Below, in pieces: positions 30,510 to 41,416 of a DNA stretch of 64,000 bases. Origin of the DNA: Escherichia phage vB_EcoM_R5505; sequence record MK373786.1, one strand, 5' to 3'. Position numbers and translations under genes: made by a program. The notes below the pieces were generated by a model that saw only the letters and a program-made list of their open reading frames with translations, searched no databases and was not told the DNA's origin. How positions within the stretch are numbered: the first letter of the stretch is position 1; each line of letters opens with the position of its first letter.

Positions 30510-30587
30510 TACCCATTACCGCGCTTTGGCTCGACCTTATCACAGGTTGACGGGAATACCTCAAATGAGGTCCAGGCTGTTCCCATA

Positions 30588-31061
30588 TTATTTGAACGAT
30601 TTAACGTACTGAATAGAACCTTTACTATTTACAAAGGCAATTTTACCATTTTTATTATACATGGTAGCAGTACGTTGATAACCATAAGTTTGTTTACCAG
30701 ATTGATAACCAACTAATGCGAAATTATCTTCGCCCATTTTATTCTGTTTAGCGCGAATGCGTTCATGACCATGTGCCATAAGAACCTTAGCATCACCGGT
30801 TGCAATGGATCGACGAGTTTTTTCATCTTCAACTGTATTAACAAAGTCGTCAAATGAATCAAATTTAGCATGAGATTTATTATACAGTTTTCCATCTACT
30901 GCATAATTATATCCCTGTACATCCATCTCAACTTCTGTACCATCATCCAATACAGCAGTGATTTTTTGACCTTTTTTAAATTTCAAAAGATCAGTAAAAG
31001 ATTCAGCAATAATTTGAGAATTAATAGCTGCTTCAGTGATAAATTCTTGATATGTTTTCAT
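30588..31061 (-). CDS. Internal head protein with capsid-targeting leader, 157 aa
   Basis: N-terminus MKTYQEFITEA matches the capsid-targeting sequence of T-even internal proteins. Confidence 0.65.
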   Translation of the reverse strand: MKTYQEFITEAAINSQIIAESFTDLLKFKKGQKITAVLDDGTEVEMDVQGYNYAVDGKLYNKSHAKFDSFDDFVNTVEDEKTRRSIATGDAKVLMAHGHERIRAKQNKMGEDNFALVGYQSGKQTYGYQRTATMYNKNGKIAFVNSKGSIQYVKSFK

Positions 31062-31077
31062 ATGATTCCTTTAATTT

Positions 31078-31395
31078 TTATTCTTTAGGAAAATTTTTAG
31101 AATATGCGTCGTAAAGCTTATTTCCAATACGACGAAAAACTCTAGCTGCAAAACGATTTTCTGGGTTTTTAATCATAATTTGCATCATATAAGTACCCGC
31201 GTCTGAAAGAGCTTCTTCATAGTACCCGTTAATTTCTTTAAGAGTCCTACGTTTACCACCAGGACCATCAACAGTGATTTTCCATTTACCTGTAGAAGTG
31301 CGACTCGGCGGCTCAACTTGTTCAATCCAAATATAACCGCCTTCTACACGTTGTCCTGCAGCAGATTCTGCAATAAATTCTTGATATGTTTTCAT
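31078..31395 (-). CDS. Internal head protein with capsid-targeting leader, 105 aa
   Basis: N-terminus MKTYQEFIAESA capsid-targeting sequence. Confidence 0.65.
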   Translation of the reverse strand: MKTYQEFIAESAAGQRVEGGYIWIEQVEPPSRTSTGKWKITVDGPGGKRRTLKEINGYYEEALSDAGTYMMQIMIKNPENRFAARVFRRIGNKLYDAYSKNFPKE

Positions 31396-31404
31396 ATGTT
31401 TCCT

Positions 31405-31821
31405 TTAAATGTAAATATTTTTACCGTAATACTTATACCAATGTGGTTTCATTAAAATTTTTTCATCAAGTCGTTGTTGACTCAATTTAATAGCTGATTT
31501 GCATGGATTATAATCATTTTTCCATTCTACTGGAATATCGCTGATGTCAGGAACTTCAGTATCTTTTATACTGAACCCTCGTTTTAAGCATTCCGTTATA
31601 ATGTCTAATTGACGCTTTCGCAAAAATTCTAACTTATCGTAAAAGAAAGTAACATGACCAGAACCTAAAATAAATTTAGAAGATATTTTAAAATCTTTAA
31701 CGCGCTTACCGTTTGCCACATGCTTACGAACTATACCAAAAACACGCGGCAATTCACGGTATTCTGCGATTAAATGTTGATCAGCAAGTTCAGATACTAA
31801 AGTCAAATTAATACGAGTCAT
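31405..31821 (-). CDS. denV: Endonuclease V (pyrimidine-dimer DNA glycosylase), 138 aa
   Basis: [29 protein letters not shown]... matches T4 DenV; 138 aa. Confidence 0.95.
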
Positions 31822-31846
31822 TTTATCCCTCCAAGTAACTGTGAAT

Positions 31847-31876
31847 ATACTATCACAATTCTAGGAGAAAGTAAAC
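31847..31876 (-). promoter_or_regulatory. Early-type promoter upstream of denV
   Basis: Minus strand GTTTAC-N18-TAGTAT. Confidence 0.45.
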
Positions 31877-31880
31877 AACT

Positions 31881-32849
<969 letters not shown>

Positions 32850-32868
<19 letters not shown>

Positions 32869-33338
32869 TCAGTGATAAAGTTATTTAAATTTTGAGTATA
32901 TTTCTTTTCATCAAAAATCCTTTGTTGTCTGCGTAGCCGCCATGGCATTTCAATGAACGTGTACCATATCCCAGATAATATTGCTGCTGTAAAAATATTA
33001 ACAAGTATGGTTAAAAGAATCCAATCTCCTATTCTGTCCATTGGATTTTTTATAAAAAAGTAAAATACGAATGATGTCACAGGAAAACTAATAATGTACC
33101 ACAGAATCATAATTTTATCTGTGAACCAATCAGCATTTGTTAACTTAGCACGACCATTATGAATACACACGAATTTATCATCTGTTATAATAGATGGCTT
33201 AGCTGCTTGATATCCCATTCTAAACTCCCTAATCAACAAATTTTTCATATCTTCGGAACAACCATTCCAGTCAACTCTATTAACTGAAATGCCATCATCC
33301 CCATCATCTAAATCATACCAGCGAGTTTTTAAAATCAT
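32850..33338 (-). CDS. Membrane protein, 162 aa
   Basis: Hydrophobic segments (IMILWYIISFPVTSFVFYFFI, ILLTILVNIFTAAILSGIWYTFI). Confidence 0.5.
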
Positions 33339-33709
33339 TTAATTTTCCTACAATCATTCACGAATTCTTTCATTGATTCATTTTCAATATAAGACATGTA
33401 GTTATTATATTCTTTTAATTGTATTTTGTAATCCTTTTTTCTTTGCCAATTTATTTTAAAATTATCATAATGAAAATATAAAATGATACTAAAGAATGAA
33501 AATAATGAAATTGCTATAGTATAATGAAGTTCACTCCAAACTTCTATTATATCTACTATACCGCTGACGTTACTGCGGATGTTTAAAATAATACAGTCAA
33601 TCATTAATCCAATAAGACTACCAGCAAGAGCTGCAGCCAACGCCACAGCAAAAATTAAAAATGACTCAGAAAAAGAATATTTGACTTTATTTAGTTTTGG
33701 CTTTTGCAT
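33335..33709 (-). CDS. Membrane protein, 124 aa
   Basis: Two hydrophobic segments. Confidence 0.5.
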   Translation of the reverse strand: MQKPKLNKVKYSFSESFLIFAVALAAALAGSLIGLMIDCIILNIRSNVSGIVDIIEVWSELHYTIAISLFSFFSIILYFHYDNFKINWQRKKDYKIQLKEYNNYMSYIENESMKEFVNDCRKIK

Positions 33710-34104
33710 CGTGATTCCTTAACAAATTTCATAATTTCATTAAATTCATACATATTTAGTTTAAGCTGGTGTTCCTTTTTAATCTTTTTACACTGAGCTT
33801 TCCATTCACGTACACGTTTACGATAATGCCTTCCTTGATACCAATATCCTACCCAATTTACAGGTACCAATAAAAATGGAACTACTAATGGAAGAATTAA
33901 TACTAACAAAAATATTACGCCAGATTCAATATCAGTCATAAAGTCTATAACCATTCCAACAATCAATAGAATTACAAATGATATAGCTGTCACAGGACCT
34001 ATTAATACATCAGTAGGAATTAGCTGACGTTTTAGTTCATACTTCACAGGTTCACTTGGAAGGTATAGTGATGGCTTTGACATATTCTCTACATTCCTTA
34101 ACAA
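33691..34104 (-). CDS. Membrane protein, 137 aa
   Basis: Two hydrophobic segments followed by a basic C-terminus. Confidence 0.5.
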   Translation of the reverse strand: MLRNVENMSKPSLYLPSEPVKYELKRQLIPTDVLIGPVTAISFVILLIVGMVIDFMTDIESGVIFLLVLILPLVVPFLLVPVNWVGYWYQGRHYRKRVREWKAQCKKIKKEHQLKLNMYEFNEIMKFVKESRCKSQN

Positions 34105-34657
34105 ATTTTTCTAATAATAAATCGCTTTCAAAATTAGGATTTTCTACGAATTTATCAAAAAGATCATCAACAATAGTTAAGATATTCTTTTTACTAAGAA
34201 TACGTTTATTTTCATGCTTTGTTTCAGAATCAACTATAAGAGTAAAGAAATATTTCTTGCCCTGAAATTTTACAGTAGTATCAATATAGAATAAATTTGA
34301 CTTTTGTAAATTACGTTTAAACCATGCATCACTTAAACTATAAACACCAAGATAATCATAATCGTCGTTTAAATAACATACTGTCCATTCAGGAGAAATG
34401 AAATCAGTAAATTCAACATCAAAATCACATGTTAATGAATGAATTGATTCAATACTGTTAATAAGTATTCCAGGACGTATTAAAGACTTTTTACCTTTAT
34501 AAAATCCAGAAAGACTTTCATCAGTTTCATATGAAGAACCCCAATAATAATTACGTCCTTCTGCCATACGTTTAAGAGCATTTAATAATTGGTCTGGAAC
34601 ATCAACCTGTCTTTGGAACTCTTCAAACATTGAATTGAAATCACTTTGCATTTTCAT
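34052..34657 (-). CDS. Hypothetical protein, 201 aa
   Basis: Track ORF. Confidence 0.5.
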   Translation of the reverse strand: MKMQSDFNSMFEEFQRQVDVPDQLLNALKRMAEGRNYYWGSSYETDESLSGFYKGKKSLIRPGILINSIESIHSLTCDFDVEFTDFISPEWTVCYLNDDYDYLGVYSLSDAWFKRNLQKSNLFYIDTTVKFQGKKYFFTLIVDSETKHENKRILSKKNILTIVDDLFDKFVENPNFESDLLLEKFVKECREYVKAITIPSK

Positions 34658-34698
34658 TCCTACTTACTCCAAGTAATAGGGGCCGAAGCCCCTTATCA

Positions 34699-35292
34699 TT
34701 ATTTCAGAGAATTAATGTATTCCTGAACATCGGCAGAGGTAGTTTCAACCCCAGAAATATTACCATTAAAGGTTTCAACTCGAGCAAGAGTATCTTCAAT
34801 ATCAACCTTAGTCAGTGCTGCAATTTCAACTACATCATCGGCAGTACTAATTCCGAGGGCATTCGCGGCGCGAGTTTCACGGATATATTCCAATTTAACT
34901 GCAAGTTCTTGGCGAGCATCATCTAACTCAACTACTTTCTTGGCGATTTCAATTCGCATTTCAGCATAACCATCAGCTTTAGTAGTCAACTGCTCAGCTG
35001 TTCGACGATATAGTAAACCAAGTTTAGCATGCATTGTTACATCTTGACCTTCCGAAAGAAGCTTGCGAATTTCACGCTCTTTTGATTCGGCCTGCTTATT
35101 CTTTTCGACAATAAGTTCACGAATACGCTTTTCTTCATTAATAGATTTAACAGAAGCAGTTTTTAGATCTTTAATCTTATCAAGTAGTTTTGCTGCTGCA
35201 GCAGTATACTGTTCTTCAACAGATAGATTTTTAGCCATAGCAGAACCAAGTTTAGTGCGAATAAACTCAACAATTTTCTTCAGTGTGTTCAT
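34699..35292 (-). CDS. Coiled-coil protein with PspA/IM30-like architecture, 197 aa
   Basis: N-terminal amphipathic helix then long charged helical segments; resemblance to PspA/Vipp1 family by pattern only. Confidence 0.45.
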
Positions 35293-35348
35293 AGTATTTC
35301 CTTAGGTTGGTATAATTAGATAATATCACGTTTTAATAGATTGTAAAC

Positions 35349-35684
35349 TTATTCTTCGTCTAGCTCGTCGATAAAGACGTTGATGGCCTCGATAACGGCA
35401 TCATTGATAGCTAATAAAATAAAATCATCGTCAGTACCTTTAGAAGATTCTAAAGCATTGATATATGCTTGGTTGGCGAGTTCCCAAGCCTTTTTAAAAT
35501 AAGGAGCTTCATCATCAGGACAAATATCCCGCACGCCTTCAAAGATACGTTTGGCATAATCTAACACCCATTGTACAGGCATGTTTTGAGAACGTTCGTT
35601 AAACTCTTTAAAGTCCTTAGATTCAAAAAGCTCTTCAGGATAATTATTTCTATTACAAAAAGCTTTACTAAAGTTACGTTTCAT
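35349..35684 (-). CDS. Hypothetical acidic protein, 111 aa
   Basis: Track ORF. Confidence 0.45.
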   Translation of the reverse strand: MKRNFSKAFCNRNNYPEELFESKDFKEFNERSQNMPVQWVLDYAKRIFEGVRDICPDDEAPYFKKAWELANQAYINALESSKGTDDDFILLAINDAVIEAINVFIDELDEE

Positions 35685-35740
35685 AATGTTTTCCTCATTT
35701 GTATAGGCTCATAATATCTCAATCATGAGCCTATGTAAAC

Positions 35741-36016
35741 TTATTTCATATTATTGAAATATTCTTCTGCGATTTCGTCGTTATCATGGTAAACTTTAGA
35801 AGACAGTTTAACATAACTTTCAGCAGTGAACATGTTAATCACAACCTTTACAGTATACCACTGACCGTCTTCATTGCCCATTACCGCATAAGTTTCAAAC
35901 ATCGGATGATCAGGACCGATAACTTTAATATCATTCACTGTACGACCGAAATCTTCTGAAACACATTTCATAAAGAAGTTGAACAGTTCGCCGTAATTAT
36001 CCATTTCGTTCTCCAA
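35741..36016 (-). CDS. Hypothetical protein, 91 aa
   Basis: Track ORF downstream of early promoter 36048-36077. Confidence 0.45.
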   Translation of the reverse strand: MENEMDNYGELFNFFMKCVSEDFGRTVNDIKVIGPDHPMFETYAVMGNEDGQWYTVKVVINMFTAESYVKLSSKVYHDNDEIAEEYFNNMK

Positions 36017-36047
36017 GTTGTTTTCTGTATCAGTAGTTGATAGTTGT

Positions 36048-36077
36048 ATAGTACCATGGAAGAAAAGGGATGTAAAC
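36048..36077 (-). promoter_or_regulatory. Early-type promoter within conserved promoter cassette
   Basis: Minus strand GTTTAC...TGGTACTATACAACTATCAACTAC. Confidence 0.55.
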
Positions 36078-36210
36078 AGTTTTGTGAAAAAATTTTTAAA
36101 AAGTTTTAGGGAATTCTAGGGTCAGGAGGGGCAATTAAAAGATAGGATAATATATTATAAAGGGTAGAAACTAAATGATGCCTAGAGAGGCCCAGAAAGG
36201 CCTAGATACC

Positions 36211-36235
36211 AAAAAGTCCCAACCTTTCGGTTGGG
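36211..36235 (-). terminator. Intrinsic terminator
   Basis: Stem-loop CCCAACC-GAAA-GGTTGGG followed by TTTTT on the minus strand. Confidence 0.65.
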
Positions 36236-36245
36236 GCTAAGAATG

Positions 36246-36719
36246 TTATTTGATTTGTTTAGCAGACCAAATGCGGTCTTTAATAATTTTTTGGATGTCT
36301 TCAACATACTCAAGAGAGTGAGCATGTGGGTTATCTTTGAAACTATAAGCACGAGCTAACTTTTGACCTTCAGTTTTGATTACTAAAAGCTCTTTAAGGA
36401 TAGCTTCATATTTGGAGATAATTCCTTTAACAATATTTTTTTCTTGTGTAGCTTTAGGATCTGCTTTAGGAGCAGGTTTACCTGAAGCCTTTGCAAAAGC
36501 AGCGCCAGTAGCAACTAAACTTTTCCAGGCCATACTAACTGCATTCCCTGTAAATCCTTCGGCTTTCATATCACGAGCAAATTGGAATCGTGATTCATCG
36601 GAAGCATCTTTATAGGAATATTTACCCGCGGCAATGGCTGCTTTTGCGACAGCTTGAATTTCGGTGCTAGATGCTTCATTTAACACCGCTTCATTTAAAA
36701 ATTGAGCATATGATTTCAT
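36246..36719 (-). CDS. Internal-protein-like head protein with leader, 157 aa
   Basis: N-terminus MKSYAQFLNEA resembles the capsid-targeting leader; minus-strand TATAAATA at 36755-36762 upstream; hairpin terminator downstream. Confidence 0.55.
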   Translation of the reverse strand: MKSYAQFLNEAVLNEASSTEIQAVAKAAIAAGKYSYKDASDESRFQFARDMKAEGFTGNAVSMAWKSLVATGAAFAKASGKPAPKADPKATQEKNIVKGIISKYEAILKELLVIKTEGQKLARAYSFKDNPHAHSLEYVEDIQKIIKDRIWSAKQIK

Positions 36720-36754
36720 CTTATTTCCTGTTTTAATTCGTGGTTTTAATATAC

Positions 36755-36762
36755 TTATTTAT
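36755..36762 (-). promoter_or_regulatory. Late promoter core TATAAATA
   Basis: Exact TATAAATA on minus strand upstream of the head-protein-like gene 36246..36719. Confidence 0.5.
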
Positions 36763-36765
36763 ACC

Positions 36766-36792
36766 AAAAAGCCCCAACCTTTCGGTCGGGGC
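36766..36792 (-). terminator. Intrinsic terminator at the distal end of the tRNA/stable-RNA transcription unit
   Basis: Stem-loop GCCCCGACC-GAAA-GGTTGGGGC followed by TTTTT on the minus strand. Confidence 0.6.
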
Positions 36793-36799
36793 TAAGCCT

Positions 36800-37100
36800 T
36801 GCGGCAACCTTGTCGGGGTTCCACCTGCTAAGGCAAGTGTTTGTACGAAACGCCGGGATTCGAACCCGGTTATTAAGCAGTTGACGCTACTCAATATTTT
36901 TAAAAGGCCATATCTCGACCATATCCGAACGTTCCGTCAAAAACGCTACTCGGCTTACGGCAAAGATATTTCCTCGAATCGATAATTCGGTGCGCCGTTT
37001 CTGCTGTGATATAAGAGGGCATTAACAAAACATAAAGATTTATTAATGCCAGTCCTTAAACAGGGAACATCAGTCCGACGACTTACCGGTAGCGACCCGG
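36800..37100 (-). ncRNA. Structured non-coding region downstream of the tRNA cluster (candidate small stable RNAs, tRNA-like T-arm)
   Basis: No plausible ORF; tRNA-like T-arm CCGGG-ATTCGAA-CCCGG at 36853-36869 with complementary acceptor-like ends (36846-36852 and 36930-36936); 8-bp inverted repeat GGCATTAA/TTAATGCC around 37019-37050; T4 encodes two small stable RNAs near its tRNA genes. Confidence 0.35.
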
Positions 37101-37104
37101 TTTC

Positions 37105-37455
37105 TTAATATTCTTTTAAAGCATCAATTTGTTCACGGCGTAAACGCCATAAATCAATTGCTTCATAAGCAGATTCAGCATTTCGAATTAGCCGACATTT
37201 ATGTAAAGACTTATGATTTTGATATTGTGTAGATAACGGAATTTTATCTAAAAGGTCTTTACGTTCAAAATATTCGTAACCATCTAAACCAAATGAACGA
37301 TTTTTGAGAAATTGCCAATGACCATATTCGTTTTCGACATAAACATAATCTGCATGCTGATAAAGCAAATTAATTACACGTTCAGAAATAACAGTATCAT
37401 TATGATTAAAATAGAATGTTAAATCATGAACTACTAAATAAACATTACATTTCAT
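37105..37455 (-). CDS. Hypothetical protein, 116 aa
   Basis: Track ORF between tRNA-Arg and the structured RNA region. Confidence 0.45.
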   Translation of the reverse strand: MKCNVYLVVHDLTFYFNHNDTVISERVINLLYQHADYVYVENEYGHWQFLKNRSFGLDGYEYFERKDLLDKIPLSTQYQNHKSLHKCRLIRNAESAYEAIDLWRLRREQIDALKEY

Positions 37456-37473
37456 ATTTTCCTCACTTATAAT

Positions 37474-37549
37474 TGGTCGAGGCAGTAGGGATCGAACCTA
37501 CGACCTAGGACTTAGAAGGTCCTTGCTCTTCCTTCTGAGCTATGCCCCG
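37474..37549 (-). tRNA. tRNA-Arg (anticodon TCT), CCA encoded
   Basis: Hand-folded cloverleaf: acceptor CGGGGCA/TGCCTCG, T-arm GTAGG-TTCGATC-CCTAC, anticodon loop CTTCTAA. Confidence 0.85.
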
Positions 37550-37553
37550 TAAT

Positions 37554-37629
37554 TGGGGTGACCGATGGGAGTCGAACCCATGACTACGAGAATCACAATC
37601 TCGAGTTCTACCAACTGAACTACGGCCAC
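37554..37629 (-). tRNA. tRNA-His (anticodon GTG), CCA encoded
   Basis: Hand-folded: acceptor GTGGCCG/CGGTCAC, D-arm GTTC-AGTTGGTA-GAAC, anticodon loop TTGTGAT, T-arm ATGGG-TTCGACT-CCCAT, discriminator C. Confidence 0.75.
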
Positions 37630-37745
37630 ATTAATACCTACTCCAACAATCAAGATGTCTTCACACGAAATTAAGAGAAGAGTGATCAGTTCAACCCCTA
37701 TAATCGCGTCAAGTAGATATTAATGTGACAGTTGTCACAAATTTG

Positions 37746-37817
37746 GCGGACGTGATAGGATTCGAACCTATAACCAATCGCTTAACAGGCGATCGCTCTG
37801 CCATTGAGCTACACATC
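37746..37817 (-). tRNA. tRNA-Asn (anticodon GTT), CCA not encoded
   Basis: Hand-folded: acceptor GGATGTG/CACGTCC, anticodon stem-loop ATCGC-CTGTTAA-GCGAT, T-arm ATAGG-TTCGAAT-CCTAT. Confidence 0.75.
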
Positions 37818-37821
37818 CAAA

Positions 37822-37908
37822 TTGGTGGGGAGTGGTGGAGTCGAACCACCCGAGTCGCAATGACAATGAATTTACAGTCCACACCGCTACCTCTACGGGA
37901 TAACTCCC
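37822..37908 (-). tRNA. tRNA-Tyr (anticodon GTA), long variable arm, CCA encoded
   Basis: Hand-folded: acceptor GGGGAGT/ACTCCCC, anticodon loop CTGTAAA, long variable arm, T-arm GGTGG-TTCGACT-CCACC. Confidence 0.7.
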
Positions 37909-37917
37909 CAAATTAAT

Positions 37918-37992
37918 TTGGTGGCCCTGGGTGGAATTGAACCACCATCTGGCGATTATGAGTCGCTTGCTTGAACCTTCCAGCTACAGGGC
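37918..37992 (-). tRNA. tRNA with anticodon CAT (Ile2/Met type), CCA encoded
   Basis: Hand-folded: acceptor GGCCCTG/CAGGGCC, anticodon loop CTCATAA, T-arm GGTGG-TTCAATT-CCACC; in T4 the CAU tRNA reads AUA as Ile. Confidence 0.8.
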
Positions 37993-37993
37993 C

Positions 37994-38070
37994 TTGGTGC
38001 TGATTGACGGAATCGAACCGCCGACCTTCTCATTACAAGTGAGTTGCTCTACCTACTGAGCTAAATCAGC
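37994..38070 (-). tRNA. tRNA-Thr (anticodon TGT), CCA encoded
   Basis: Hand-folded: acceptor GCTGATT/AATCAGC, D-arm GCTC-AGTAGGTA-GAGC, anticodon loop CTTGTAA. Confidence 0.85.
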
Positions 38071-38075
38071 AAAAC

Positions 38076-38165
38076 TGGCGGAGGCGATAGGATTTGAACC
38101 TATGAGTCGCCGGAGCGACTGCCGGTTTTCAAGACCGGTGCATTAAACCACTCTGCCACGCCTCC
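38076..38165 (-). tRNA. tRNA-Ser (anticodon TGA), long variable arm, CCA encoded
   Basis: Hand-folded: acceptor GGAGGCG/CGCCTCC, anticodon stem-loop ACCGG-TCTTGAA-AACCGG, long variable arm, T-arm ATAGG-TTCAAAT-CCTAT. Confidence 0.9.
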
Positions 38166-38167
38166 AG

Positions 38168-38241
38168 TCTCCATACAAGGATTTGAACCTTGGACCTCCT
38201 GATCCCAAATCAGGCGCTCTACCAAACTGAGCTACACGGAG
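38168..38241 (-). tRNA. tRNA-Pro (anticodon TGG), CCA not encoded
   Basis: Hand-folded: acceptor CTCCGTG/TATGGAG, D-arm GCTC-AGTTTGGTA-GAGC, anticodon loop TTTGGGA. Confidence 0.85.
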
Positions 38242-38251
38242 TAAATTAAAT

Positions 38252-38325
<74 letters not shown>

Positions 38326-38330
38326 AAATT

Positions 38331-38417
38331 TGGTGCGAGAAGTGGGACTCGAACCCACAAGGAAATCATTCCGCAGCATTTTAAGTGCTGTGCCTTTACC
38401 AATTTGACCATTCTCGC
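38331..38417 (-). tRNA. tRNA-Leu (anticodon TAA), long variable arm, CCA encoded
   Basis: Hand-folded: acceptor GCGAGAA/TTCTCGC, anticodon stem-loop CAGCA-CTTAAAA-TGCTG, T-arm GTGGG-TTCGAGT-CCCAC. Confidence 0.85.
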
Positions 38418-38418
38418 G

Positions 38419-38491
38419 CTGGGAATAAAGGACTCGAACCTTTGCATCTAGCAGTCAAAGTGCTATGCCTTACCAACTTGGCTAATTCCCA
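38419..38491 (-). tRNA. tRNA-Gln (anticodon TTG), CCA not encoded
   Basis: Hand-folded: acceptor TGGGAAT/ATTCCCA, D-arm GCC-AAGTTGGTA-AGGC, anticodon stem-loop TAGCA-CTTTGAC-TGCTA. Confidence 0.85.
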
Positions 38492-38577
38492 ATTATTAAC
38501 AAAGGCTCTCAAACAAGAACCCTTGATGATAGAGGGTATTAATCAGTGCGGTATGAGTTAATAATAACAAATAATTC

Positions 38578-39093
38578 TTAAAGCAAATTAAACATTTTAA
38601 CGGTCGGCAAAACAATTTCTTCTTCTATATAAGAGTATTTAACACTCTCAACTACACGCAAAAAATCATAATCATAATACTCAGAAGCATTACCTAAAAT
38701 ATTAATAAGTCCTTCAAGCACTTTATTACCATTCACAAAGAATAAGTCAAATACGCGTTCTTCGTCTTCTTCGGATTTATTACCAAGGTCAACTTCTATA
38801 TCAAAGACCTTTTTAATGAATTCTGGATAAAGTTGTTCTGAGAACAGTCCTTCAACCAAGTATTCATAAATAAAAAGCGATTGCTCGCTGAACAAGCCAT
38901 TACCACAATAACGTTCAGCTTTAGTACTAGAATGTCTACTTTTAAACTTCTTTAAAAGATATTGAAATTGTAAGATTTCATGCTCTTCTACGCCAAACAG
39001 TGTTTTAGTTTTATAGTTGTCACCATCATTTTCCCAGGTAGTGACATCAATTACGTAACCCTGTGGAATTGTAGTACCTAAACAAATATTCAT
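38578..39093 (-). CDS. Hypothetical protein, 171 aa
   Basis: Track ORF upstream of the tRNA cluster. Confidence 0.5.
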   Translation of the reverse strand: MNICLGTTIPQGYVIDVTTWENDGDNYKTKTLFGVEEHEILQFQYLLKKFKSRHSSTKAERYCGNGLFSEQSLFIYEYLVEGLFSEQLYPEFIKKVFDIEVDLGNKSEEDEERVFDLFFVNGNKVLEGLINILGNASEYYDYDFLRVVESVKYSYIEEEIVLPTVKMFNLL

Positions 39094-39383
39094 TTGCTCA
39101 CCATATTAATGTAAGTATATTCAATACATTCAAGACCCAAAGGATTCTTGAAAATATCATATTCAAGAGGACCTTTTTCCGTTTCAATAAAGAAATCAAA
39201 ATTTACTGTATTAAATTTACGGTCTTCCTTCACTAATTTAACCTGAGAAGATGAACGGTCAATGTAAACCTTTTCAACTTCAAAACATGTTAAAATGCCA
39301 TAATCATCAATCAAGGCTTTAGCTGCTTCTTGATCATATTTATATCCATTTTCAATGGATGATACTTTAGCATAAAGAATCAT
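39090..39383 (-). CDS. Hypothetical protein, 97 aa
   Basis: Track ORF. Confidence 0.45.
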   Translation of the reverse strand: MILYAKVSSIENGYKYDQEAAKALIDDYGILTCFEVEKVYIDRSSSQVKLVKEDRKFNTVNFDFFIETEKGPLEYDIFKNPLGLECIEYTYINMVSK

Positions 39384-39385
39384 TA

Positions 39386-39796
39386 TCAGCCTCTATCAAC
39401 GATAGCATGAGTATGGGCATTTACGATTTGCCACCAGTCGAAACGATTGGAACCATAATCTGGTTTATTTTCATTTTCTTTAATGATATCACGCAGTTTA
39501 TCTTCTGTTTCAGCATACGCAATTAAATCATCATATCCGCCACAAGGATAATAATTATCACCTGCGAATAAAAGAAAATTTACCTTAGATGGATTTACGT
39601 AATAATGGTCTTTAGGATATTTAGTTCCTCTCCAATCAGTTACTTCAACATAACGGTAAGAAAATCCATTTTTACTTTCAATCCAACTCCACGCTTCAAA
39701 AGGAGTATTAAAAACTTTATCAGGTATTAAATTACCTTCAAAATGAGAAGGATTTGCATAATCCCCGGCATAAACATAATATTCGTTAATACTCAT
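39386..39796 (-). CDS. Hypothetical protein, 136 aa
   Basis: Track ORF. Confidence 0.5.
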   Translation of the reverse strand: MSINEYYVYAGDYANPSHFEGNLIPDKVFNTPFEAWSWIESKNGFSYRYVEVTDWRGTKYPKDHYYVNPSKVNFLLFAGDNYYPCGGYDDLIAYAETEDKLRDIIKENENKPDYGSNRFDWWQIVNAHTHAIVDRG

Positions 39797-39982
39797 TTAT
39801 TCACCTTTAGAAATTTTATCCATAACAATAGCAATTAAACCAATTAAAAATGCTACTACAAGTGAAAACACATTTTCTGCTGTAGTCAATAATCCACATA
39901 TAAATCCAACAAACATTGAAAAACTAAAAGCGGAAGCAGAAATTGCAATAGCAACATTTCGAATTAATTCACAACGTTTCAT
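39797..39982 (-). CDS. Small membrane protein, 61 aa
   Basis: Two hydrophobic segments; downstream of early promoter 40011-40040. Confidence 0.4.
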   Translation of the reverse strand: MKRCELIRNVAIAISASAFSFSMFVGFICGLLTTAENVFSLVVAFLIGLIAIVMDKISKGE

Positions 39983-40010
39983 TTTATTCTCCTCAGTAGT
40001 AGATAGGGTA

Positions 40011-40040
40011 ATAGTATCACTACCCTATCTAAAAGTAAAC
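40011..40040 (-). promoter_or_regulatory. Early-type promoter (variant cassette GTGATACTATTACC)
   Basis: Minus strand GTTTAC-N18-TACTAT with flanking inverted repeat. Confidence 0.5.
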
Positions 40041-40274
40041 TTATTTTTTACGAAAAATTGATTTATATTTATCAGCCCATTTCTCGATGACTTTTTCTGG
40101 TCCATAGATAACAAAATAATCACCAAACTCTTCACCACCGAGTTGACCGAAATTATCTAATGCATCACGAAGAACTCCATGAGGCATTTCGCCCATTTTA
40201 TCTTTCTTACCAATGTAAATAAACTCAACTTTTACATCAGCAGCTTCAGCAATAAATTCTTGATACGTTTTCAT
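40041..40274 (-). CDS. Internal-protein-like small protein with capsid-targeting leader, about 77 aa
   Basis: Track ORF 40041..40292 begins at a GTG; real start placed at ATG 40272-40274 giving MKTYQEFIAEAADVK with GGAG upstream. Confidence 0.6.
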   Translation of the reverse strand: MKTYQEFIAEAADVKVEFIYIGKKDKMGEMPHGVLRDALDNFGQLGGEEFGDYFVIYGPEKVIEKWADKYKSIFRKK

Positions 40275-40310
40275 TTTATTCTCCAATTTCACATTTGTTT
40301 TGATAGGGTA

Positions 40311-40340
40311 ATAGTATCACTACTAAAACCCCGTGTAAAC
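40311..40340 (-). promoter_or_regulatory. Early-type promoter (variant cassette) upstream of the 77-aa internal-protein-like gene
   Basis: Minus strand GTTTACACGGGGTTTTAGTAGTGATACTAT. Confidence 0.5.
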
Positions 40341-40359
40341 AACTTTGTGAAATTGTTTA

Positions 40360-40647
40360 TTACAAAAGATTTTTAGCAATAATCTTGAGATGTGCTGCAG
40401 AAATGTGTTTAGCTTTAAACAACGCAGTTTCTTCGGCAGGAGAGATAACGATTGTAGCACCATCCTTTTTAGCAGACCACCCATCACCTAGGTAAACAGT
40501 ACCTTTGATTTCTTCGCCATCAACCAGACTAATCATTGGTTTACCTTCTCGTCCTTTATTTGCTTTAATAACTTCAGAAGTAAGAGTAGCTTCGGTAATG
40601 GTAGAAACCGGGGTAGTTGTAGAAGTAAATTCTTTAAATGTTTTCAT
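40360..40647 (-). CDS. ipI: Internal protein I precursor (19-aa leader plus 76-aa mature), 95 aa
   Basis: 95 aa; leader MKTFKEFTSTTTPVSTITE ending in a prohead-protease-type site; position adjacent to 57B as in T4. Confidence 0.7.
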   Translation of the reverse strand: MKTFKEFTSTTTPVSTITEATLTSEVIKANKGREGKPMISLVDGEEIKGTVYLGDGWSAKKDGATIVISPAEETALFKAKHISAAHLKIIAKNLL

Positions 40648-40677
40648 TTTATTTTCCTAATTAATTTTGATGAGATA

Positions 40678-40708
40678 ATAGTATCACTACCTCATCAGTA
40701 TGTAAACA
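40678..40708 (-). promoter_or_regulatory. Early-type promoter (variant cassette) upstream of ipI
   Basis: Minus strand GTTTAC-N19-TACTAT. Confidence 0.45.
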
Positions 40709-40719
40709 ACTTTGTGAAA

Positions 40720-41416
<697 letters not shown>

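Follow-up and report, generated by a model that had tools for sequence, protein, structure and literature searches.

Internal-protein genes of Escherichia phage vB_EcoM_R5505: a repertoire of common cassettes and a possible third locus

Bacteriophage T4 packages small internal proteins (IPs) in its head and injects them along with its DNA. For IPIII, the first ten residues suffice for packaging, and this leader, the capsid-targeting sequence (CTS), is then cut off by the gp21 protease; mutagenesis showed that targeting depends mainly on residues 4 and 7, and processing on residues 8 and 10 (PMC9026906). IPI has a leader of 19 residues, MKTFKEFTSTTTPVSTITE, the removal of which yields the 76-residue IPI*, an inhibitor of GmrSD (PMC3012670, PMC12373910). 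Indeed, T4 Ip1, Ip2 and Ip3 each inhibit one distinct type IV restriction enzyme of the GmrSD type, without cross-protection (PMC12373910). IPIII is required for infecting strain ECOR17, and IPIII made in the host cell without its CTS still rescues phages that have lost ipIII on this strain (PMC9391042). More recently, Bas37_0260, a CTS protein encoded at the ipI locus of phage KarlGJung (Bas37; MZ501089), was shown to protect its phage from McrBC, the knockout being McrBC-sensitive; the gene matters only when McrBC is present (bioRxiv 10.1101/2025.11.20.689424). That the T-even phages carry variable sets of CTS-bearing IPs, shuffled as cassettes, has been described since Repoila 1994 (cited in PMC3012670, PMC12373910 and PMC4122927). 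The promoter-early stem-loop (PeSL) element, first noticed at the IP locus, has been proposed to mediate this modular shuffling (PMC4122927).

Here we analyse a stretch of 64,000 nucleotides of Escherichia phage vB_EcoM_R5505 (sequence record MK373786.1), hereafter the window, which belongs to a T4-like phage of the genus Tequatrovirus. A first-pass annotation of this DNA had pointed to five genes whose products begin with a leader of the MKTYQEF type, against three internal-protein genes and the order denV-ipII-ipIII-e in T4. The T4 record indeed has three, and shows this order on its plus strand. The reading of the five genes as internal-protein genes is supported by what follows, and the phenomenon is largely ordinary, textbook T4 biology. 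What is new is modest but concrete: the gene at 36246-36719 as a candidate internal protein gene, a possible third locus with a terminator-bounded cassette that contains a late-promoter motif, and the link between Ip6 and a demonstrated McrBC inhibitor.

Five genes with capsid-targeting leaders

The pattern MK[STA][YFW]x(1-2)[EQD][FLY], run as a regular expression over the six frames of the window, finds exactly five matches, all of them starts of genes on the minus strand whose products are, in coordinate order from 30588 to 40647, 157, 105, 157, 77 and 95 amino acids long. These are the genes and lengths given in the first-pass annotation (Table 1). The same five starts are the top five matches of a tblastn search of the window with MKTYQEFIAEA. 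Over 300 mononucleotide shuffles, the loose pattern averages 0.13 occurrences with a maximum of two, and a strict 10-residue version of the leader pattern does not occur at all. Five leaders are far more than chance would give. All five open reading frames (ORFs) begin with ATG, with a Shine-Dalgarno site of the AGGA/GGAG type 6-10 nt upstream; for ip6, the ORF as delimited mechanically begins with GTG at 40292, and relatives annotate the ATG at 40274.

The five proteins share M-K-[T/S]-[Y/F]-x-[E/Q]-F, with a tyrosine or phenylalanine at position 4 and a phenylalanine at position 7. All of them also contain the [L/I]-x-E triplet, at residues 8-10 in four proteins and at residues 17-19 in IPI. 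The predicted gp21 sites are ITE in Ip4, IAE in Ip10, LNE in the product of gene 36246-36719, IAE in Ip6 and, further downstream, ITE in IPI. Those of Ip4 and of the 36246-36719 product are conserved in homologs, and in the Ip4 family both E10 and the second site, E20, are invariant. AlphaFold models of the same two proteins have a low-confidence, detached N-terminus followed by a folded body. By likeness to T4, we infer that the five proteins are packaged and processed in the phage from which the window comes.

Beyond the leader, the resemblances stop. The IPI of the window is identical to T4 IPI (95/95 residues) and matches PF11634 (IPI_T4) with E 7.3e-54 and 180 bits, against a cutoff of 25. 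With their leaders removed, the four other proteins are unlike each other; compared with T4 IPII and IPIII, they give nothing better than E = 0.1, and the mature IPII and IPIII find only matches with E > 1 in the whole window by tblastn. Judged from these comparisons, the set is ipI plus four non-homologous cassettes, without ipII and ipIII. Mature parts that are unrelated to each other and to IPII and IPIII are what is expected of this class of proteins. We consider it likely that the five genes encode internal proteins of the T4 type. The set had been described in the first-pass annotation as an expanded one; this holds for the number, five leader genes against three in T4, but not in the sense of T4's three plus two others, since homologs of ipII and ipIII are missing. 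The comparison with ipI, ipII, ipIII and the variable loci of related phages, which the same annotation recommended, leaves only ipI in common with T4, the other four being cassettes of named or PHROG families.

When the CTS-bearing genes are counted across the same region in each phage, there are three in T4 (ipII, ipIII and ipI), three in Bas41 (ip4, ip10 and ipI), three in Yersinia phage fD1 (ip4, a gene of the 36246-36719 type and an IPI-like gene), four in Bas37 and five in the window (ip4, ip10, 36246-36719, ip6 and ipI). At least one close relative, vB_EcoM-101117BS1, carries the same ip4, ip10, 36246-36719 and ip6 genes. The repertoire of the window is at the high end, yet it is a recombination of individually common cassettes. 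The segment 29500-33500 is 100% identical to Escherichia phage FriedrichZschokke (Bas41), and the segment 35700-40700 is 99.2% identical to AdolfPortmann (Bas44). Judging by these identities, known Tequatrovirus modules seem to have recombined into a mosaic genome, Bas41-like on the ip4/ip10 side and Bas44-like on the tRNA/ipI side. The longer segment 28000-43000 has no exact match among phage records, the best being 98% identical over 96% of the span.

In the mechanism that this reading implies, each protein would start with a CTS of about 10 residues, of which residues 4 (Y/F) and 7 (F) would target it to the prohead's scaffolding core. The gp21 protease would cut after the Glu of [L/I]-x-E, and the small mature protein would stay in the DNA-filled head, to be injected along with the DNA. 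It would then act before phage gene expression, blocking the modification-dependent (type IV) restriction of the glucosyl-hydroxymethylcytosine genome. The genes themselves would be exchangeable cassettes at hypervariable loci, recombining at short conserved linkers: PeSL elements at the ipI locus, the Shine-Dalgarno and leader segment at the ipII/ipIII locus, and a duplicated terminator hairpin with a late promoter between e.8 and rnaC.

A candidate internal protein gene between e.8 and the rnaC-like region

The product of gene 36246-36719 starts MKSYAQFLNEAVLNEASS. It is assigned to PHROG 2280, of 'unknown function'. By tblastn the gene is found in 511 phage records (216 members in its 90% cluster), and the family is 'hypothetical' in every annotation seen, including the RB32 and PP01 records, which name other ip genes. 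The protein keeps all four mapped CTS positions, Y4, F7, L8 and E10. The leader is the best-conserved N-terminal feature of the family and persists in homologs with as little as 40% identity; L-x-E still closes the shortened variants MKSYAEFLTE, MKTYNEFLMTE and MKFKEFLAE. The AlphaFold2 model (pLDDT 73.5) consists of a disordered leader and a helical body.

The gene lies between e.8 and the rnaC-like region, preceded by an exact T4 late-promoter motif, TATAAATA, and bordered on both sides by a terminator hairpin (Table 1). The two hairpins form a 36-nt direct repeat with 94% identity and a spacing of 555 bp. At its e.8/rnaC site T4 carries the hairpin once and lacks precisely the segment between the repeats. 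A late promoter of its own makes sense for a product that is needed when prohead cores assemble.

In Bas37, the ortholog of this gene, bas37_0244, is 97% identical and has the same arrangement of hairpins and late promoter. The e.8/rnaC site of that phage contains two units in series, the ortholog and a CTS gene of 187 codons, each ended by a terminator with the same tail. This second gene, Bas37_0243 (MZ501089 7029-7592, minus strand), lies directly downstream of the ortholog and is absent from the window; its 187-residue product begins MKTYAEFLTEAAKLPSE and has a near-canonical leader, MKTYAEFLTEAA. Its family is found in 165 phage records, in all of which it is 'hypothetical'. A distant homolog in Klebsiella phages sits in the equivalent e-gene neighbourhood. 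With a second CTS gene present in Bas37, the site behaves as a third IP locus. In transposon data obtained by HIDEN-SEQ, Bas37_0243 scores as essential (1/48 sites hit), which is odd for an internal protein that looks accessory. In the same kind of data bas37_0244 (29/34 sites hit) and bas37_0260 (15/15) are both non-essential in the laboratory host.

Virion proteomics of a relative bears on these products. Yersinia phage fD1 (HE956711) encodes g129, 100% identical to Ip4, g140, identical to the 36246-36719 product at 156 of 157 residues, and g146, which is IPI-like. According to Table S3 of the fD1 paper, all three are particle-associated in LC-MS/MS at full threshold, and g140 is marked there as having no T4 counterpart. 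The accessible text of that paper and its supplement does not report N-terminal processing of these products.

Taken together, these findings suggest that gene 36246-36719 may well encode an internal protein that has gone unrecognised, and it seems fairly probable that its product is packaged and processed. A wider proposal is that this family and that of Bas37_0243 mark a third, unrecognised IP locus, occupied by cassettes of the form terminator/late promoter/gene/terminator, whose product is an injected inhibitor of a host defence to which no phage counter-measure has so far been assigned; for this whole proposal we regard the chances as even.

At higher coordinates, the space separating the rnaC-like region from tRNA-Arg is occupied by a 116-aa ORF (37105-37455, minus strand), which Bas44 and Bas37 annotate as hypothetical and which lacks a counterpart at this position in the T4 record. 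The tRNA cluster at 37477-38491 (minus strand) is larger than that of T4: Rfam detects ten tRNAs and one weak tRNA-like match, against eight tRNAs in the T4 record, and in close relatives eleven are annotated, among them those for His, Asn and Tyr. The segB homing endonuclease of T4 is absent from this stretch. Rfam detected only tRNAs over 35900-38700.

Cassettes at the two classical loci

The other four genes lie in the two classical IP loci, e/denV/vs.8 and 57B-to-trna.4. At the first, two adjacent leader genes come before denV, as the first-pass annotation had remarked; the order in the window, ip4-ip10-denV-e, differs from that of T4. Over its full length (residues 1-157), Ip4 matches PF24183 (DUF7412) with E 5.7e-96 and 319 bits, where the cutoff is 27; it also matches phrog_3155, 'internal virion protein'. 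By tblastn it is present in 470 phage records, T2-type phages, PST and PP01 among them, and is called Ip4, ipIV or internal virion protein. Its AlphaFold2 model has a pLDDT of 78.8 and a pTM of 0.73. Ip10 matches phrog_3966 and is found in 189 phage records; it is named Ip10 in PP01, VR7, SP18 and phage Pol, and the name can be traced to the phage Pol entry CAA84455. A match of Ip10 to CsgH (Pfam) was dismissed as noise (E 0.088; 13 bits, the cutoff being 27). By these sequence matches, ip4 and ip10 of the window are members of the Ip4 and Ip10 families.

The Shine-Dalgarno and leader segments of ip4 and ip10 form a 61-nt direct repeat with 82% identity, and the 5' untranslated region and leader DNA of ip10 are those of T4 ipII, identical over about 55 nt. 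As for the early promoter after gene e, the gene that it precedes is ipIII in T4 and denV in the window. A block of about 80 nt (30510-30587, minus strand) separates the stop codon of ip4 from the vs.8-like ORF; it is about 93% conserved with T4, where denV precedes it. The different gene order at this locus is accounted for by these shared linkers, namely the promoter, the leader repeat and the block of about 80 nt. The block folds no better than shuffled sequence (z = -0.26), for which reason an RNA element is not proposed; it is more likely a recombination linker or a 5' untranslated region than a structured RNA. In Yersinia phage PST (NC_027404, 3427-5103) the order is e, ipIII, ipIV, vs.8. 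Since denV is missing from this hotspot in PST, denV too behaves as an exchangeable cassette.

At the second locus, Ip6 matches phrog_8111, 'internal virion protein', and is found by tblastn in 245 phage records, named ip6 or ipVI. The genes ipI, ip6 and trna.4 are each preceded by a promoter TTTACA-N17-TACTAT with an overlapping stem-loop. The linkers upstream of ip6 and ipI form a 66-nt repeat with 79% identity, a third copy of which lies at 40002-40040.

Table 1. Leader genes of the window and the repeats, promoters and hairpins next to them (a slash marks the position after the Glu of an [L/I]-x-E triplet or the end of the leader)
Feature	Coordinates	Strand	Remarks
ip4 (IpIV)	30588..31061	-	157 aa; leader MKTYQEFITE/AAINSQIIAE/S; [I]xE sites at 8-10 and again at 18-20
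Shine-Dalgarno and leader repeat, ip4 copy	31026..31086	-	covers the 5' leader-coding end; partner 31360-31420
ip10	31078..31395	-	105 aa; leader MKTYQEFIAE/SAAG
Shine-Dalgarno and leader repeat, ip10 copy	31360..31420	-	partner 31026-31086
Two exact late-promoter motifs upstream of gene e	32389..32409	-	
Terminator hairpin repeat, downstream copy	36206..36241	-	just past the stop codon of 36246-36719
Candidate internal protein gene	36246..36719	-	157 aa; phrog_2280; leader MKSYAQFLNE/AVLNE/ASS
Exact T4 late-promoter motif TATAAATA	36756..36763	-	begins 44 nt upstream of the 36246-36719 ATG; directly after the upstream hairpin
Terminator hairpin repeat, upstream copy (end of rnaC-like region)	36761..36796	-	10 pairs
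ip6 (IpVI)	40041..40274	-	77 aa; leader MKTYQEFIAE/AADV
PeSL-type early promoter linker upstream of ip6	40293..40358	-	TTTACA-N17-TACTAT, degraded stem-loop; sigma-70-like match
ipI	40360..40647	-	95 aa; T4 leader of 19 residues MKTFKEFTSTTTPVSTITE/A
PeSL-type early promoter linker upstream of ipI	40660..40725	-	stem GATGAG...CTCATC across the -10 region

Function, alternative explanations and related systems

The extra leader genes had been proposed in the first-pass annotation as candidate injected effectors, which agrees with the anti-restriction literature on Ip1-3 and on Bas37_0260. For IPI, inhibition of GmrSD by IPI* is established for the identical T4 protein. Ip6 is probably an inhibitor of McrBC, because it is 81% identical to Bas37_0260 over 77/77 residues. 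Ip4, Ip10 and the 36246-36719 product most likely act on other enzymes of the type IV or GmrSD-like kind. Against all PDB chains, the four proteins other than IPI gave only chance-level sequence matches; no NCBIfam model scored above its cutoff, and Foldseek searches of PDB with the AlphaFold2 models of Ip4 and of the 36246-36719 product returned only E > 0.1, with TM-scores below 0.4. A literature search on the names Ip4, Ip6 and Ip10 yielded no relevant papers, those citing fHe-Yen9-01 were of no use here, and the paper on fPS-90 and fPS-65 contains no proteomics.

Several points weigh against the reading of the five genes as T4-type internal-protein genes, or against its functional extension. 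Packaging, cleavage and injection are deduced from the T4 IPs and from the fD1 orthologs rather than from the phage of the window itself. The fD1 data support the reading without being specific, as the list of particle-associated proteins has 113 entries, among them the non-structural rIIA. The inhibitors are narrowly specific, so that 81% identity is no guarantee that Ip6 would still target McrBC. The sequence searches, and those with modelled folds, give no functional lead. At positions 3, 5, 6 and 9 the leader of 36246-36719 has S, A, Q and N in place of the canonical residues, and this gene lies outside both classical loci, the other four being inside. Finally, the exact late-promoter motif was not found directly upstream of ip4, ip10, ip6 or ipI, so that late expression of these four would need read-through. 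The late promoters before gene e are a likely source of read-through transcripts over e, denV, ip10 and ip4; a terminator scan found no minus-strand terminator-like site between 32400 and 30588. For ipI and ip6, a late motif inside gene 1, which T4 also has, is a candidate source.

Some of these points lead to the alternative that survives best, which concerns gene 36246-36719: its product might not be an internal protein at all, but a late cytoplasmic or accessory protein that remains unpackaged and has a loosely CTS-like N-terminus. Only 6 of 11 leader residues match MKTYQEFIAEA, the gene occupies neither classical locus and is not called an IP in any annotation seen, the fD1 list in which g140 was detected is permissive, and the Bas37 ortholog showed no fitness phenotype in the one comparison consulted. 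On the other hand, the residues that matter for targeting and processing are all there and the leader is the part of the N-terminus that divergent homologs retain best. The exact late-promoter motif and the gene's own terminators are as expected for a product made during prohead assembly, the model places a disordered leader before a folded body, g140 was found in purified virions at full threshold, and the Bas37 ortholog adjoins a gene with a near-canonical leader. We hold this alternative to be unlikely.

It could also be that the extra internal proteins mainly serve head assembly or DNA condensation, by scaffold help or charge neutralisation, rather than counter-defence, their diversity being the result of neutral drift. 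Indeed, T4 IPIII mutants assemble heads more slowly, give smaller bursts and make more polyheads (PMC9026906), and about 1000 IP copies accompany the DNA in the T4 head (PMC9026906; PMC3012670). Most of the five window proteins are basic, with isoelectric points (pI) of 8.9-9.5, and the neighbouring CTS gene Bas37_0243 scored as essential in the transposon screen. However, IP genes are dispensable in laboratory hosts (PMC9026906), and all the T4 IPs with a known role block a specific type IV enzyme, without cross-protection (PMC12373910). The rescue on ECOR17 by CTS-less IPIII made in the host, and the need for the Ip6 ortholog only when McrBC is present, point the same way. Ip6 itself, acidic to neutral (pI 5.8), is a poor fit for a DNA counter-ion, and the exchange of whole cassettes for non-homologous ones is more in keeping with an arms race than with a conserved structural role. 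A mainly structural function appears improbable. That the five include duplicates which are decaying or not expressed, and in which recombination between leader segments has kept the leader alone, is highly improbable: the DNA coding for the leader is repeated at the nucleotide level and also shared with T4 ipII, so that recombination could graft it onto arbitrary sequence, but all five ORFs are intact with good ribosome-binding sites, each gene recurs in tens to hundreds of independent phage genomes with 95-100% identity at the protein level, divergent homologs are full-length, and two of the products have been detected as proteins in the relative fD1.

Under the reading that we retain, that of T4-type internal proteins with anti-restriction roles, proteins injected with the DNA and acting before phage transcription would be the first answer to restriction enzymes that attack modified phage DNA. 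Each further IP family would then be a ready probe for an unassigned host defence, and a host-range determinant relevant to phage therapy; three orphans of this kind are present in the window, namely Ip4, Ip10 and the 36246-36719 family. The results also suggest that at least two widespread CTS families escape annotation pipelines, because they lie outside the two classical loci.

How does this repertoire compare with the known systems? The closest likeness is with T4 IPI, the inhibitor of GmrSD of E. coli CT596: the window has the same protein at the same 57B/trna.4 locus, with the same early promoter linker. The locus differs by a second cassette, ip6, which T4 lacks. Ip6 has its own counterpart in Bas37_0260 (MZ501089 145553-145786), which has the same length and the same leader and occupies the same slot between trna.4 and the gene in the ipI slot. 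The 15 substitutions between the two proteins fall mostly in residues 45-67, and the ipI slot itself holds an 85-aa protein of the IpV type in Bas37 and IPI in the window. Ip4 and Ip10 are 97-100% identical to the Ip4/IpIV and Ip10 proteins of T-even phages (PST, PP01, T2 and Pol), so named by Repoila et al. 1994. With T4 IPII and IPIII, the inhibitors of the ECOR21 and ECOR17 variants of GmrSD, ip10 and ip4 share the leader (MKTYQEFIAE and MKTYQEFITE, respectively) and the region from e to vs.8. The T4 genes lie between e and denV, whereas ip10 and ip4 are downstream of denV, and the mature parts are dissimilar.

As for the linkers, those of the ipI locus fit the consensus TTTACW-N17-TAYWAT given for PST and T4 PeSL elements in PMC4122927, and hence the PeSL cassettes of Arbiol 2010 and Comeau 2014. 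The part of that paper that was consulted describes PeSL elements with an early promoter and PmSL elements with a middle promoter, and no version with a late promoter was found in it. PeSL elements have an early promoter; the cassette of gene 36246-36719 has instead a duplicated intrinsic-terminator hairpin followed by the late promoter. If the proposal of a third locus holds, the 36246-36719 cassettes would be the late-promoter counterpart of the PeSL shuffling elements.

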